From a bacterium (GTDB taxonomy: Bacteria > Patescibacteriota > Patescibacteriia > UBA10025): DNA of 64,000 nucleotides. The number at the start of each line of letters is the position of its first letter. Within the stretch, counting starts at the first letter, position 1. Of this stretch, positions 1 through 51,536 are shown one piece after another. The stretch is taken from positions 3,447-67,446 of the forward strand of contig JAKAGM010000001.1 in the NCBI GenBank assembly GCA_021815445.1. The letters are read 5' to 3'. Position numbers and translations under genes: made by a program. The notes below the pieces were generated by a model, which had not been told where the DNA came from, searched no databases, and worked only from the letters and a program-made list of their open reading frames with translations.

Positions 1-52
1 AAGACATGCAGACTCAGATTTTGTTCAGTTAGCGGATAAGAATCATGCCCGT

Positions 53-718
53 ATGACAAAAAAAGAAAAAATCATACTTCTCATCCTGGTAGGCGTTACG
101 ATTGTCGCGGCAGCTGTGTTCGTAGGAATCTACAAATATAACCTCGGCGGACTCATACATACCGCTCCCGGAAATAGCAACCGGAACACAGCGAGGATGC
201 CACTGCCTGAATCGAGAACAATCACCCCGCAAGACCGCAAGGATCTCGGCTTGGCGGAAGGTATTGACGGGGTGATCAAGTATGCGTATAAACCGGATGG
301 CAGTGTGATGTCGTACGTGGAGATTACCAAAGATACGCGGCCGGCTGATGACGACGGCGACGGTCTCTCCAACGATCTGGAAGCTAAGCTGGGCACCGAC
401 CCGAAGAACCCGGATACTGATCGCGATGGACTGCTTGATGGCGATGAAGTCAGGATCGGTACCAACCCGAAGAAAGTGGATACCGACGGAGATAAAGTGA
501 ACGACGGAACGGAAGTAAAATATTGTCTCGACCCGCTGAAGCTCGATACTCTGGGAAACGGGAAAGGGGATGCGGCGAACCTGAAGGCTCACCCGGAAGG
601 GTTTTGCAGTACGGCCGCGTCGCCTACAAATTCTGCCACGAATAGTGACAGCAACGCCAGGGTATTTATTGAGAACGTCAATTCCACACCGAGCGTTCAA
701 ACTAACTCGGCGCAGTGA
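53..718 (+). CDS. membrane-anchored protein with thrombospondin type-3-like Ca-binding repeats
   Basis: ATG at 53. An N-terminal hydrophobic anchor (ILLILVGVTIVAAAVFVGI) is followed by repeated DxDxDG..D..E units (DDDGDGLSNDLE, DTDRDGLLDGDE, DTDGDKVNDGTE). Confidence 0.6.
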   Translation: MTKKEKIILLILVGVTIVAAAVFVGIYKYNLGGLIHTAPGNSNRNTARMPLPESRTITPQDRKDLGLAEGIDGVIKYAYKPDGSVMSYVEITKDTRPADDDGDGLSNDLEAKLGTDPKNPDTDRDGLLDGDEVRIGTNPKKVDTDGDKVNDGTEVKYCLDPLKLDTLGNGKGDAANLKAHPEGFCSTAASPTNSATNSDSNARVFIENVNSTPSVQTNSAQ

Positions 719-24018: not shown

Positions 24019-24044
24019 GATCGAGGTTTGGGAATTAGAGTAGT

Positions 24045-24070
24045 GTATCAGTGTGTTAACACATTGATAC
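24045..24070. repeat. 26-bp GTTAAC-centred palindrome, copy 1
   Basis: GTATCAGTGTGTTAACACATTGATAC. The right arm overlaps a TTGATA-18 nt-TATAAT promoter (24064-24093). Confidence 0.85.
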
Positions 24071-24239
24071 ATACATAAAACTGTTTTTATAATGCATTGA
24101 CACTTGTGTGGGCGACTGCTACCATTGTCTAACCCTTTCGTACATTCGACATTCAAAAACATAACTACCAATAACAGTGCAGCCCTTTATATGTAGGCAA
24201 CACAAATTCTTAGTCCACGTTCTGAAGAAGGAGGATCAC

Positions 24240-38551: not shown

Positions 38552-38579
38552 AAAGCGTTGAAAAAGGAATAGCGTGGGT

Positions 38580-38605
38580 ATATCAACGTGTTAACACATT
38601 AATAC
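38580..38605. repeat. 26-bp GTTAAC-centred palindrome, copy 2
   Basis: ATATCAACGTGTTAACACATTAATAC followed by ATTTCG, 24 nt upstream of the 38630 ATG. Confidence 0.8.
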
Positions 38606-38629
38606 ATTTCGAAAGACAAGAACAGATCC

Positions 38630-39280: not shown

Positions 39281-39320
39281 TGTACTTTGAGGGCCATGAT
39301 GTAGCGTCGCATATGTTAGT

Positions 39321-39346
39321 GTTCCGATGTGTTAACACACTAGTAC
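39321..39346. repeat. 26-bp GTTAAC-centred palindrome, copy 3
   Basis: GTTCCGATGTGTTAACACACTAGTAC followed by ATTTCG. The left arm is degenerate. Confidence 0.75.
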
Positions 39347-39508
39347 ATTTCGTAAATAAAAAATTCCAGCCAGCCTTTTATGTGCAAACAGGGGTTGTTT
39401 TTGTTTCAGTAAGCGTATAAACTACCGGCGGTAGAGATGGTATCGCGATGTAGTGTTTTGAGAATACATCAAGGGGTCATGAGCAATGTTTTATGCTAAC
39501 ATGATAAT

Positions 39509-41305: not shown

Positions 41306-41432
41306 CGGACCCAACCCCGTCATTCGCGAATGACGGGGTGGTCTTCTCCGTGATCCCGCACCATGTCGCTTCGCTCCAGATGCGGGACTTCGCAGGGAGG
41401 CATTTTCCTCAAACCGGACCCAAGGGGATTTG
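41306..41432 (-). pseudogene. degenerate partial tRNA-Asp copies
   Basis: 41410-41432 repeats 23 nt of the T-loop/acceptor/trailer segment (identical to 41568-41590). 41306-41399 carries TTGGGTCCG plus TCACGGAGAAGACCA and CTCCCTG, with a 39-nt hairpin inserted in the anticodon loop and the T-arm replaced by a 9-bp hairpin. Confidence 0.6.
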
Positions 41433-41572
41433 GTTCCGGGGTCTCGCTGTTCCTTCGGAACATCGCTCGACCCGTCTCGTCCCGCGCGAAGCAAAACTAT
41501 TTGCTTCGCTTGTTGACTCAACCCCCTGATCTTCTCGGGGATCTGTGCAAGTTAGGCGCATTGTTTCCAAAC

Positions 41573-41647
41573 CGGACCCAAGGGGATTTGAACCCCTGGT
41601 CTTCTCCGTGACAGGGAGACGTGTTAACCGGGCTACACCATGGGTCC
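41573..41647 (-). tRNA. tRNA-Asp (GTC)
   Basis: Manual cloverleaf: GGACCCA/TGGGTCC acceptor, GTGT/ACAC D-stem, TCTCC-CTGTCAC-GGAGA anticodon arm, AGGGG-TTCAAAT-CCCCT T-arm, discriminator G. No CCA is encoded. Confidence 0.9.
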
Positions 41648-43231: not shown

Positions 43232-43631
43232 TGGTGGAGATGAGGGGAATTGCACCCCTGTCCAATATACGAACCAGTCAACGTCTCCAAGCTATCCTAT
43301 TTTAGCGTGGTCGATGGCAGAAGTCAAAATAGGAAAAAGGTCCTGCCATCCGAGTCTCGTGGTACGGCCGGGAGCAAGAGACACGCTCGTCGGTCGTCCT
43401 CCGTTTGTGACACCTCCGACCTTCTCAGGAGGAATCAGAAGGGGAGATGGTTATCGGTTTTTACGCGACAACAGGCGCAAAGGAAGGCGCAAATACGCTT
43501 GCAAGTGCGGTCTTCGCTTTGCTTACAAATGATTTGGCATTTGTCTAATTGGAGCCAGTTTAACGTCATGAACTGCCGTGGACGGCTTGCAGTTGAGATG
43601 GCAATGTACACTGTCGATTATAAGCATCCCC
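43232..43631 (-). ncRNA. ssrA: tmRNA (SsrA)
   Basis: 5' GGGGATGCTTATAATCGACAG... and 3' ...GGACAGGGGTGCAATTCCCCTCATCTCCACCA. The acceptor GGGGAUG/CAUCUCC includes a G3:U pair (alanine identity). It lies directly downstream of smpB. A candidate tag frame ends ...FAPVVA-UAA. Confidence 0.88.
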
Positions 43632-44109: not shown

Positions 44110-44184
44110 AGGAATATGAGTAGTATACAGGATTTTTGAACTGTGGATAATCGGGGTTGACGTCCGAAGTTGTTTGGGTGTAGT

Positions 44185-44210
44185 GTATCAATGTGTTAAC
44201 ACACTAATAC
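44185..44210. repeat. 26-bp GTTAAC-centred palindrome, copy 4
   Basis: GTATCAATGTGTTAACACACTAATAC, preceded by GTAGT as in copy 1, 22 nt upstream of the yerC-like ATG. Confidence 0.85.
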
Positions 44211-44232
44211 ACCTCAGCATGTACCCCATTTT

Positions 44233-49097: not shown

Positions 49098-49483
49098 TCC
49101 CCATGGTCAGCAAGTATTGGCTTGTCCGCGTTTGGGATATTAAAGATGTCCTGAGCGACTACGGGTTGACACCTGAGCAGACTGCGACTGTATGCGGTAC
49201 TATCGTGAACAACACGTGCATCCGCTTTACAATACAGTCGCAGTATCAGTGCGGAGTTGGCGAACCTCACGTAGTACCTTTTACCGGCGAGTACGTGGGT
49301 GTGTTTCCCGCCTTGATCCGATCGTCGCTCCTCGAGCACCATGTCATCCTCCGGCGATACAGGAGAATGATATTCCGACTCTGGAATCGGAAAGTCGCTA
49401 CTATGTATCTCGGGACGCTGGTGTGCGCGGAGCACTTTACGTACGTTAAGTCTATTCCCCTGGACTATTGGGGACCATGGTAA
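49094..49483 (+). CDS. hypothetical protein (129 aa) translationally coupled to the ATP-grasp gene
   Basis: ATGA overlap with the upstream stop. No recognisable motif. Confidence 0.45.
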   Translation: MIPMVSKYWLVRVWDIKDVLSDYGLTPEQTATVCGTIVNNTCIRFTIQSQYQCGVGEPHVVPFTGEYVGVFPALIRSSLLEHHVILRRYRRMIFRLWNRKVATMYLGTLVCAEHFTYVKSIPLDYWGPW

Positions 49484-49600
49484 CGCAAAGCAGAGTGGCA
49501 GTGGAACCTGATCGAAAGATTTGGGTCTGTAAGATCAGTAGGTTCCTCTGCACACTCTGCAGAATGCAGGCTAGGCGATCCGTCTCGGATTGTCAAGCCG

Positions 49601-49637
49601 ACAGGCAGAGCTTTTTTGAGCTATCTGCCTGTTTTTC
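49601..49637 (+). terminator. intrinsic terminator
   Basis: acaggcaga...tctgcctgt perfect 9-bp stem followed by a T5 run. Confidence 0.6.
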
Positions 49638-49666
49638 TTGACAACTTTTTACACGCAGTATACAGT
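49638..49666 (+). promoter_or_regulatory. sigma70-type promoter of the argS leader (TTGACA-17 nt-TACAGT)
   Basis: TTGACA at 49638-49643 and TACAGT at 49661-49666. Confidence 0.55.
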
Positions 49667-49683
49667 GCTCACAAACGCAGATT

Positions 49684-49740
49684 CCCCCCGTAGTGCAGTC
49701 TGGTAGCACGCTCGGTTCGGGACCGAGAAGTCGCTAGTTC
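49684..49740 (+). pseudogene. tRNA-Pro(CGG)-like 5' fragment inside the argS leader
   Basis: CCCCCCG-TA-GTGC-AGTCTGGTA-GCAC-G-CTCGG-TTCGGGA-CCGAG-AAGTC-GCTAG-TTC has canonical D and anticodon arms, but the sequence diverges inside the T-loop. I found no 3' acceptor strand. Confidence 0.55.
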
Positions 49741-49883
49741 TCCGCCACCTAAATATCCAAAGAGGCGGATCCGCCTCTGGCGGAAAATCCGGCTGGTGGC
49801 CCTCACTTTTTTCCCAATGATCGTTGCAGGACGGTCTTTTTTTCTTACCTCTTTCTCGATTCCTTGATATACTGTACACATCT

Positions 49884-51536
49884 ATGACGCTCAAAGGATT
49901 GATAGCGAGACAACTCACCAAAGATATTCTGGCGCTCTGGCCGGATGCTCGAGAAGCCCTCGAACAGGGTTCCTTTGTTGTTGATATCAGCTATCCGCCC
50001 GATTCGAAGTTCGGCCACTATACCACGAACATTGCCCTCCGGCTTAGCGCTGTTGCTAAAATGGCTCCCCAGGAGACTGCAAAAAAGATTGCTGATCGCT
50101 TCTCGCTTCCCGCTGTGCAAAAAACCGAGGTGGCGGGCCCCGGCTTCGTGAACTTTTTCCTCAAAGAATCCTGGCTTTCACGCCAGCCGGAAAAGATTAT
50201 CAAGGAAAAGAAAGCATTCGGTAAAAGCGTGCTCGGCAAAGGCCAGCGCGTTGACGTCGAGTTCATCTCAGCCAACCCCACGGGTCCGCTGACGCTCGGC
50301 AATGGCAGGGGAGCATTCATGGGCGATACATTGGCAAACGTTCTCTCGGCCGCAGGATATGTCGTGAAGCGGGATTATTATGTCAACGACATGGGCAACC
50401 AGGTCAATATCCTCGCAGAATCAGTCCTGCGCAGGTATTGGATTTCTCAGGGCATCCGCATGGAATATCCCGCATACTGTTATCAGGGGGAGTACATCGA
50501 CGATATAGCAAAAAGCCTCTACCTCCCAAATTACAATCTGGGGAAAACGTCGCTTTCCGACATTCGGGACAAGATCAAGGGGAGAATCCTCAAGCGAATG
50601 CTTGGCGGTATCCAACGTTTTGTCACGAAGCGGCTCGGGATCAAGTTCGATATGTGGTTTTCTGAACGGAGCCTCTATGTCTCGGGAAAAATGGACAAGA
50701 TGCTCGACACGCTCCGCTCGCTCGACCTCATTTTTGAGAAGGAAGATGCGATCTGGTTCCGTACGACTCAGTTCGGCGACGACAAAGACCGCGTATTGAT
50801 CCGCGCTAACAGCGAACCGACATATTTTCTCCCAGACATTGCCTACCATCACGATAAGTTCACCCGGAGGAAATTCAACAGAGTGATTAACTTCCTCGGC
50901 GCCGACCACGCGGGGTACGCGCCGAGACTGCAGGCGGCTATGAAGGCGCTCGGGCACGGCGGCAAGCTGGATATTATCGTATTCCAGCTCGTGAAGCTTA
51001 TCTCCGGCGGCAAGGAGGTCCGCATGTCGAAACGCAAAGGCATGTTTGTCACTTTCGAGGAGCTTATCGACGATGTGGGGCCTGATGCGGCGCGATACTT
51101 TTTCCTCATGCACGCGCCGAACACGCACATGGACTTCGATCTTGATTTAGCCAAGAAAAAAACGCAGGATAATCCCGTGTATTACGTCCAGTATGCTCAC
51201 GCGCGTATTTGTAGTATACTCAGGAATGCGAAAGGACTGCCGGTACTTCAAAAAGCAACGGTGGAAAGCAGCGTCCACCCAAGCCAGTTCAATCTGATGG
51301 TCAAACTTGCCCAGTGGCCTGAGATAGTCGAAGATATCGCCCAGACCTATGCGATGCACCAGCTGCCCACGTACGCGTATGAGCTTGCAACCCTTTTCCA
51401 TGAGTTTTATACTCATGTACGCGTGATTGACCAGGGTGCTGTAGCGAAAATGCCTTTTGAGCTTATCCAAGCAGCAAAAATCGTGCTCGCCAACGTGCTT
51501 ACCATGATGGGCATTTCAGCGCCTGAAAAAATGTAA
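49884..51536 (+). CDS. argS: arginine--tRNA ligase
   Basis: Start refined to the ATG at 49884. SANPTGPLTLGNGRG (HIGH region) and MSKRKG (KMSK). Confidence 0.93.
   Translation: MTLKGLIARQLTKDILALWPDAREALEQGSFVVDISYPPDSKFGHYTTNIALRLSAVAKMAPQETAKKIADRFSLPAVQKTEVAGPGFVNFFLKESWLSRQPEKIIKEKKAFGKSVLGKGQRVDVEFISANPTGPLTLGNGRGAFMGDTLANVLSAAGYVVKRDYYVNDMGNQVNILAESVLRRYWISQGIRMEYPAYCYQGEYIDDIAKSLYLPNYNLGKTSLSDIRDKIKGRILKRMLGGIQRFVTKRLGIKFDMWFSERSLYVSGKMDKMLDTLRSLDLIFEKEDAIWFRTTQFGDDKDRVLIRANSEPTYFLPDIAYHHDKFTRRKFNRVINFLGADHAGYAPRLQAAMKALGHGGKLDIIVFQLVKLISGGKEVRMSKRKGMFVTFEELIDDVGPDAARYFFLMHAPNTHMDFDLDLAKKKTQDNPVYYVQYAHARICSILRNAKGLPVLQKATVESSVHPSQFNLMVKLAQWPEIVEDIAQTYAMHQLPTYAYELATLFHEFYTHVRVIDQGAVAKMPFELIQAAKIVLANVLTMMGISAPEKM

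Follow-up and report, generated by a model that had tools for sequence, protein, structure and literature searches.

A tRNA-Pro(CGG)-type gene directly upstream of argS, the arginyl-tRNA synthetase gene, in a 64,000-nt stretch of a Patescibacteriia genome (hereafter the window; contig JAKAGM010000001.1 of assembly GCA_021815445.1, lineage UBA10025) is split in its T-loop by a 44-nt double-hairpin insertion, here called element E. The split gene is probably a pseudogene in decay, with argS expressed independently of it; among the histories considered here, that of a recently inactivated and now eroding gene is the most likely. The locus itself is ordinary in kind, a tRNA gene struck by a small repeat, and its sequence is found in identical form in independent ENA and Logan assemblies. 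The bacterium, one of the Patescibacteria, is related to Kerfeldbacteria.

The gene spans 49684–49801, and E separates C56 from A57. In its native form the locus gives no tRNA call with ARAGORN and only a partial match to the Rfam tRNA family (RF00005; model positions 7–64, 18.9 bits against a gathering score of 29, E = 0.33 when the 601 nt of 49400–50000 were searched against 4227 families with permissive filters and E ≤ 10). When positions 49741–49784 are deleted in silico, ARAGORN calls a 75-nt tRNA-Pro(cgg), and the same holds for the related genome L014 (GCA_043809205.1, 66% ArgS identity) once its own copy of E is deleted. Upstream of argS, L014 carries a homologous promoter and leader and then, in order, the 5' part of a tRNA-Pro-like gene, an insertion at the identical point, AAAT, the 3' strand of a T-stem, the strand CAGGGCG, which pairs with the 5' strand of the acceptor stem, and A73. 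It is because of this orthologue, and of the excision result in both genomes, that the window gene is read here as a full-length gene that has been split. A previous, sequence-only reading of the region recognized the D arm and the CGG anticodon arm, both of which are present, and took the tRNA to break off within the T-loop; it in fact resumes after the 44-nt insertion and runs from AAAT to N73 (49785–49801). The string AAATCCGGCTGGTGGCCC, which had been likened to a T-box sequence, is the rest of the T-loop, the 3' strand of the T-stem and the 3' acceptor strand, and the proposed long-range pairing GCCACC...GGTGGC joins a segment of E with the acceptor strand and is not preserved in L014. 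The parts of the locus are arranged as follows.

49601..49636, plus strand: hairpin and run of five T closing the upstream unit (ACAGGCAGA...TCTGCCTGT TTTT), read from the sequence and near base-for-base the same in the relative L011; left edge of the variable spacer.
49638..49666, plus strand: predicted sigma-70-type promoter of the tRNA unit, TTGACA-17-TACAGT, as in the sequence-only reading (promoter scan, 10/12 positions).
49684..49740, plus strand: positions 1–56 of the tRNA-Pro(CGG)-type gene (partial Rfam match, ARAGORN after excision, L014 orthologue).
49684–49690, plus strand: 5' acceptor strand of this gene.
49693–49709, plus strand: its D arm.
49711–49727, plus strand: its anticodon arm, with the anticodon CGG at 49718–49720 and with U33 and G37 present.
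49728–49732, plus strand: its variable loop, followed by the 5' T-stem strand (49733–49737) and TTC (49738–49740).
49741..49784, no strand assigned: element E in its long-loop form, 44 nt (flank-constrained metagenome pattern; same site in L014).
49741–49769, within E: TCCGCC (49741–49746), the AT-rich loop ACCTAAATATCCAAAGA (49747–49763) and GGCGGA (49764–49769).
49770–49784, within E: TCCGCC (49770–49775), TCT (49776–49778) and GGCGGA (49779–49784).
49785..49801, plus strand: tRNA positions 57–73 (ARAGORN cloverleaf after excision, pair counts), made up of AAAT as the remainder of the T-loop, the 3' T-stem strand CCGGC (49789–49793), the 3' acceptor strand TGGTGGC (49794–49800) and C as N73 at 49801; CCA is not encoded.
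49807..49812, plus strand: first T-run, 6 nt past the tRNA 3' end, seen in the sequence and not kept in L014; it had been noted before with its position one base off, at 49808–49813.
49819..49843, plus strand: predicted intrinsic terminator of the tRNA unit, GATCGTT-GCAG-GACGGTC and then T7 (terminator scan).
49865..49873, plus strand: predicted extended -10 of argS, TGaTATACT, ending 10 nt before the ATG (alignment of argS upstream regions).
49884..51536, plus strand: argS, arginyl-tRNA synthetase, 550 aa (Pfam Arg_tRNA_synt_N, tRNA-synt_1d and DALR_1).

With the window and L014 taken jointly, 92% of the cells of the named structure are paired, against 33–44% in slid controls. Folding energies were left out of the evidence, since they were not clearly better than those of shuffled sequences (z = -1.2 for 176 nt and z = -1.8 for the 123-nt gene). 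The anticodon loop reads TTCGGGA in the window and TTCGGGG in L014, with the G35, G36 and G37 of bacterial tRNA-Pro in both. The C1-G72 pair and the A73 discriminator of bacterial tRNA-Pro are missing from the window copy, which has C1.C72 and C73, while G72 and A73 are present in L014 and in all nine intact tRNA-Pro genes of the fetched loci. Three stem positions are mismatched in the window (1-72 C.C, 4-69 C.U and 52-62 A.C), the last of them broken in L014 as well. Because of these three mismatches, together with the loss of G72 and A73, the window copy is probably a decaying pseudogene.

Several other structures were tried for this locus and set aside. A split or trans-spliced tRNA found no meaningful match to the 3' half CTAGCCGGGGGG at up to two mismatches, the 3' part sitting just past the insertion, and truncation by deletion is ruled out by L014, where a matching acceptor strand comes after the insertion that both genomes share. 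A Y-RNA or YrlA-like module is without an Rfam match, and the neighboring proteins lack TROVE or any other Pfam domain. As for tRNA introns, 44 nt is too small for a group I core and no Rfam intron matched; the helix between the junctions UUC|UCCGCC and GGCGGA|AAAU is a simple one of 6 bp, with no bulge-helix-bulge. A further peculiarity of the gene is that acceptor pairs 3-5 are flipped (C-G for G-C) in the window (49684–49690) and in L014 (2460–2466) relative to the intact tRNA-Pro of all loci, and that L014 shares its 5' strand, CGCCCCG, with the initiator tRNA (tRNA-fMet) at the same position in L015; the flipped pairs could reflect a chimeric origin or a coincidence.

The relation of this gene to argS was judged from the argS upstream regions of ten relatives (ArgS identity 48–74%), for one of which, L010, just 190 nt upstream of argS were covered. 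The E-interrupted tRNA-Pro gene is shared by L014 only, where it heads an array of three abnormal tRNA-like genes. The same position holds an intact tRNA-fMet and tRNA-Phe in L015, with the same promoter type and terminator, a decayed tRNA remnant ahead of the same terminator in L013, perhaps of the same element, and no tRNA in L011, L005/L012, L004, L001 or L002. A protein search for closer relatives of L014 returned only P0008, which is 89% identical and N-terminally truncated. The window promoter is homologous to the TTGACA-17-TATAAG that precedes the tRNA genes of L014 and L015, and four promoter-type sites are seen in the region against 0.8 expected from shuffles. At the other end, the gatcgt/acggtc hairpin (49819–49836, followed by T7) that had been pointed out earlier has the character of an intrinsic terminator, namely a hairpin with G+C, an adjoining U-run and conservation: the stem and T-run are kept in L015 and L013 with one compensatory change and are present in L014. 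Past this terminator, most of the ten relatives have an extended -10 (TGnTAtACT/TGnTATAAT) 8–22 nt before the argS ATG. Because this element stands by the ATG whatever lies further upstream, argS would appear to have a promoter of its own and a very short leader or none. It is likely, on these grounds, that the region is an independent tRNA transcription unit between the terminator of the upstream gene and argS. It would probably be transcribed from its own promoter and end at the conserved hairpin and T7, separate from argS, which would start at its own -10, free of control by this element.

What had been described as an argS leader of about 220 nt is thus better taken as a separate tRNA unit with its own terminator. 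That the region is a cis-regulatory leader of argS, whether as a T-box-like switch, an attenuator or an operator mimicking a tRNA, which would respond to tRNA-Arg or arginyl-tRNA synthetase (ArgRS) and control read-through of the two T-runs, is extremely unlikely and largely refuted already. The idea draws on the position upstream of an aminoacyl-tRNA synthetase gene on the same strand, on alternatively pairing hairpins followed by T-runs, and on CGG, an Arg codon, being able in principle to form a kissing interaction with the tRNA-Arg(CCG) anticodon. Yet every feature is covered by the tRNA cloverleaf plus E, the hairpins are those of a repeat found in unrelated contexts that include the inside of open reading frames (ORFs), and the one relative that shares the element has it before two more tRNA-like genes. 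The T-box family (RF00230) gave no match in 49400–50000 at E ≤ 10 and none across the window at its gathering threshold, the other Rfam matches of the window being a transfer-messenger RNA (tmRNA) and tRNA-Asp only; by inspection, too, a T-box architecture is absent, and CGG sits in the 7-nt loop of a tRNA anticodon arm. An operator of the thrS type, which the sequence-only reading had proposed beside the attenuator, fares no better. Recognition of tRNA-Arg by ArgRS requires C35, and because the loop triplet CGG has G35 the locus is not an ArgRS mimic; moreover, some 165 nt and two T-runs separate the arm from the ATG downstream. The restriction to L014 among the relatives compared, and the predicted -10 of argS after the conserved terminator, speak against a conserved synthetase leader, and control of argS by a T-box, an attenuator or a tRNA mimic is not supported by the sequences compared here. 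Of the explanations offered earlier, a decayed tRNA-Pro gene came nearest, except that the gene is neither truncated nor fused to the argS promoter.

The palindrome GAGGCGGATCCGCCTC (49762–49777) and the overlapping hairpin TCCGCC-TCT-GGCGGA (49770–49784) had been noticed before; each is unique in the window, and both are parts of E. E occurs once in the roughly 76 kb that was read of this 0.88-Mb genome (the window plus 12 kb), and it is common elsewhere. Its usual form is exactly 30 nt, TCCGCC-N3-GGCGGA-TCCGCC-N3-GGCGGA, that is TCCGCC-N3-GGCGGATCCGCC-N3-GGCGGA. Scanned with the pattern GTTCTCCGCC-N(5-35)-GGATCCGCC-NNN-GGCGGAAAA, in which the flanks GTTC and AAAA were fixed, the JGI/ENA metagenomes yielded 109 matching contig stretches, and the distinct contexts number 92 with the window and L014 counted. 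A shorter core pattern matched two viral contigs. These contigs, L017 (IMG/VR, 387–419) and L016, carry E between different flanks, and in L017 its place is the extreme end of an ORF read from the translation as a group II intron reverse transcriptase, just ahead of domain V.

Genes for tRNAs figure in 29 of the 92 contexts, and in 26 a tRNA on the same strand ends less than 130 nt upstream of E. Among the 33 tRNAs involved, 12 are tRNA-Pro. In six loci (the window, L014, L062, L082, L039 and L056) E has to be taken out before a tRNA is called across the junction; the full-length copies of L062, L056 and L082 are visibly degenerate, and those of L062 and L056 adjoin intact copies. In at least about 18 of the tRNA contexts, 31–156 nt beyond an intact tRNA, there is a partial copy of that tRNA's 3' part with E in the T-loop; the intact T-loops read GGTTC|AAATCC and the copies GGTTC-E-AAATCC. 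Many other copies of E lie in simple repeats of the GTTCAAA type.

Long ORFs contain E in 33 cases, and in 24 of these its phase gives F-[SAxGGSAxGG]-K/E, the element standing in frame after TTC (Phe) and before a codon for Lys or Glu. The hosts checked with Pfam include IF-2, Mfd, HsdM, a Pol X-type polymerase, MiaA, a penicillin-binding protein and an ADP-forming acyl-CoA synthetase. Because the bias toward one benign reading phase is so strong, E is taken to be translated in these proteins and not removed from the RNA. The MiaA gene also provides an empty site, since L024 reads RQMTWF|KK (TGGTTT^AAAAAA) and five other loci read RQMTWF[SAxGGSAxGG]K. Filled and empty sites mark E as a discrete insertion, and the many dispersed hairpin copies in unrelated contexts mark it as a palindromic repeat. 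By analogy, there is good reason to regard E as a selfish insertion element that resembles, in its behavior, the repetitive extragenic palindromic (REP) sequences or the Rickettsia palindromic elements. It would be mobile and would insert at GTTC^AAA-type sites. In the tRNA gene it would stay in the RNA, as the in-frame copies that encode Gly, Ser and Ala imply, and its place between positions 56 and 57 would block the T-loop/D-loop elbow, leaving an RNA that is no working tRNA; the mismatches and the missing G72 and A73 would then record the decay of the gene.

One recurrent small protein family was seen near E, a GIY-YIG-like protein (motif read by eye) that tracks tRNA arrays and not E. These ORFs, of 80–125 aa, lie between or beside tRNAs in nine E-bearing loci (L020, L093, L059/L087, L073, L109, L032 and others), the order in L093 being tRNA-Thr, ORF, tRNA-Tyr, ORF, tRNA-Thr, tRNA-Trp; judged by sequence, they may be free-standing homing-type nucleases.

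The tRNA duplicates also allow for a different origin. The E-bearing partial copies, and by extension the locus studied here, might be scars of tRNA-targeted integration (of the attL/attR type) with E as part of the integrating DNA. We hold this to be very unlikely. Direct repeats of the tRNA 3' part and trailer do flank the 31–156-nt segments that end in E, with 42 of 42 positions identical between the repeats in L078, and the window has an E-free partial duplicate of a tRNA-Asp 3' end 158 nt from its gene. However, no integrase was seen near the E sites, the supposed integrated segments are tiny, E is also found as a clean 30-nt insertion in ORFs with a known empty site, and the window shows neither a second tRNA-Pro copy nor a nearby 3' repeat. 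The tRNA-Asp duplicate was observed on the minus strand (3' end and trailer, 41400–41444 vs 41558–41602, 80% identity) downstream of the intact gene, with GGGGTTC changed to CCGGAAC and a GTTCCGAAGGAAC hairpin beside it; the layout is that of a tRNA plus 3' copy as around E, without E.

The reading of the window gene as a selfishly interrupted, decaying pseudogene has to be weighed against a number of observations that sit poorly with it. Four stem pairs (2-71, 11-24, 29-41 and 49-65) show compensatory double changes when the window is set against L014, and U33, CGG and G37 are kept in both; because of this, structure appears to have been selected during much of the divergence of the two. The stems of E are identical at 24 of 24 positions between the window and L014, against 67% identity in the tRNA body, a pattern that a single ancient insertion with simple neutral decay thereafter would not produce. 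CCG is the commonest Pro codon in the genes of the window (218 of 510), and no other tRNA-Pro was found in the roughly 76 kb of the genome that was read, where tRNA-Asp and tmRNA were the only such genes. As to the element, no transposase or other mobilizing gene was found for E among 2411 ORFs from the flanks of the E-bearing loci, clustered all against all. Given that the metagenome scan fixed GTTC and AAAA, support for the target preference comes from only about 11 further copies in these loci that were not picked by their flanks; those flanks are mostly TTC^AAA-like too. Finally, the AT-rich long-loop form of E (L020, L056, L059, L083, L115, L118, L124, L014 and the window; first loop of 16–26 nt, usually starting with AC) is confined to tRNA contexts (9 of 9, compared with 19 of 77 among copies of the 30-nt form; Fisher p = 1.5e-5), which hints at a specific association.

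Much of this would be accounted for if the interrupted gene were still a working tRNA-Pro(CGG) and E a T-loop intervening sequence, cut out with or without religation, or a tolerated extension of the T-arm. The compensatory changes, the intact anticodon loop, the retained promoter and terminator, the perfectly conserved E stems within a diverged tRNA body and the rank of CCG as the top Pro codon all speak for it; so does L039, whose E-interrupted tRNA-like gene has perfect stems and an encoded CCA, and tRNA genes of Patescibacteria are known to hide behind introns (PMC13011429). Excision could proceed by RNase III, as in ribosomal RNA (rRNA) intervening sequences, and leave base-paired fragments. 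Even so, a working tRNA is unlikely. The window has C1.C72, C4.U69 and C73 in place of the G72 and A73 of every intact tRNA-Pro examined, and 52-62 is broken in both orthologues; ORF-borne copies of E fall overwhelmingly in the small-residue phase, so that they are translated and not spliced out; and no bulge-helix-bulge or ribozyme-sized structure is seen. Stems of 6 bp are short for cleavage by RNase III. Other tRNA copies that carry E are degenerate duplicates, and the locus is gone from relatives.

It is also conceivable, and decidedly unlikely, that the locus encodes a tRNA-like small RNA with a non-decoding role, such as a decoy or platform for prolyl-tRNA synthetase, tRNA-modifying enzymes or an E-binding protein, and that the E-bearing copies of T-arm and 3' acceptor beside tRNAs are functional modules and not junk. 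A strong promoter and a terminator flank an RNA of about 130 nt, its stem pairs covary, the long-loop subfamily is confined to tRNA contexts, the layout of a tRNA plus an E-bearing 3' copy recurs in many unrelated contigs, and L014 has its array of three odd tRNA-like genes. Set against these are the limitation to two orthologues with loss of the locus in close relatives, unexceptional folding, the lack of an Rfam family or an associated protein gene, and the scatter of E in ORFs and simple repeats.

A related and more far-reaching reading starts from a second double-hairpin element, centered like E on GGATCC (TCCCGA..TCGAGGATCCTCGA..TCGGGA). It was observed in L014 (2609–2661), where it interrupts the D arm of a tRNA-like gene at TAG^CTCAG and its removal gives a poor tRNA-Glu(ttc) in ARAGORN, as well as in L020/L093 and L024/L042; in other loci it adjoins tRNA genes. 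Together, E and this second type might be undescribed tiny site-specific elements of Patescibacteria that home to the most conserved tRNA motifs, with the AT-rich-loop tRNA-Pro genes still expressed and used. We consider this a rather unlikely state of affairs. Were it true, and were the hairpin removed from a tRNA-Pro that is in use, E would be the first intervening sequence in the T-loop of a bacterial tRNA, and the product might be a two-piece tRNA; by another route to use, the RNA would have acquired a new tRNA-like role.

These findings bear on annotation. An annotation pipeline would miss the tRNA-type gene at this position, and since the 30-nt E recurs in many uncultivated small-genome bacteria, T-loop splitting could make their tRNA complements look incomplete. 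Core proteins, IF-2, Mfd and MiaA among them, gain SAxGGSAxGG loops from E. The element can serve as a convenient marker of tRNA pseudogenes and of tRNA genes that are hidden, and as a test case for whether insertions into structural RNAs are tolerated, removed or lethal. No paper describing the E motif, or palindromic or T-loop insertions in Patescibacteria (the candidate phyla radiation), was found, which is not proof of absence; the E family and its T-loop targeting appear to be new within the known class of selfish palindromic repeats.

Other structures were noticed along the window. A conserved hairpin of about 70 nt (49493–49561, flanks 49484–49582) is located past the upstream ORF and ahead of the terminator at 49601, in the form CAGAGUGGCAG-UGGAACCUGAUC...GAUCAGUAGGUUCC-UCUGC-ACACUCUG; it is also found in L011 and L005/L012, with four covarying pairs among three sequences and no Rfam family, and is a candidate small RNA or 3' untranslated region structure. 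A palindrome of about 30 nt, GTGTATCAATGTGTTAACACATTGATACAC, has four intergenic copies in the window (24040–24071, 38575–38606, 39316–39347 and 44180–44211) and may be an operator or a terminator-type repeat. The tmRNA gene (43232–43631, minus strand, Rfam 86.7 bits) has AKSFVSKAKTALASVFAPSFAPVVA as its encoded tag, apparently a longer one than tmRNA tags usually are.

Several known systems may inform how this locus is viewed. Like a T-box leader (RF00230), it stands upstream of an aminoacyl-tRNA synthetase gene and shows hairpins followed by T-runs, but it lacks a covariance model match, a Stem I and an antiterminator, and it is not conserved with argS, which has its own promoter. The partial tRNAs left by genomic islands and prophages likewise consist of an intact tRNA and then a direct repeat of its 3' end; in the E family, however, the repeats are 31–156 nt apart with no integrase, the second copy has E exactly in the T-loop, and the window has no repeat. 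In Patescibacteria, group I introns at 35/36 cause tRNA genes to be missed by standard tools, and splicing of these introns has been shown in vitro (PMC13011429). There, too, an insertion hides a tRNA gene, just as ARAGORN misses the window gene until E is removed, but those introns are self-splicing and lie in the anticodon loop, whereas E is 44 nt long, lies in the T-loop and has no ribozyme fold and no sign of removal. The rRNA intervening sequences are also hairpin insertions in the terminal loops of helices, and their removal by RNase III is documented. E is likewise a hairpin insertion in the terminal loop of a structural-RNA helix, but its stems are only 6 bp, and the documented RNase III removal concerns the rRNA sequences only.

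Closer parallels are found among small palindromic repeats. REP sequences and bacterial interspersed mosaic elements (BIMEs), which are mobilized by REP-associated tyrosine transposases (RAYTs), and the hairpin miniature inverted-repeat transposable elements derived from IS200/IS605 are tiny hairpins, often in tandem, that leave no evident target duplication and sit beside a short specific sequence. E is also a tiny hairpin repeat at a short specific sequence, but REPs are extragenic, have a GTAG head and come with a RAYT gene, whereas E occurs inside genes and no recurrent Y1/HUH transposase family was found in about 0.9 Mb of E-bearing loci. The Rickettsia palindromic elements, to which E comes nearest in behavior, are abundant in intergenic and protein-coding regions (PMC1779305). 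They resemble E as short palindromic repeats that lie between genes and in frame within housekeeping genes of reduced genomes, as E does in IF-2, Mfd and MiaA; this is a likeness in behavior, and no sequence similarity is claimed. The Rickettsia elements are 100–150 bp long and belong to Rickettsiales, whereas E has a 30-nt core, is found on Patescibacteria-type contigs and consists of two identical 6-bp hairpins around GGATCC, with a GTTC^AAA preference and a strong link to the tRNA T-loop. If it is indeed undescribed, E would be a compact parallel to the Rickettsia palindromic elements in a second lineage of reduced genomes.

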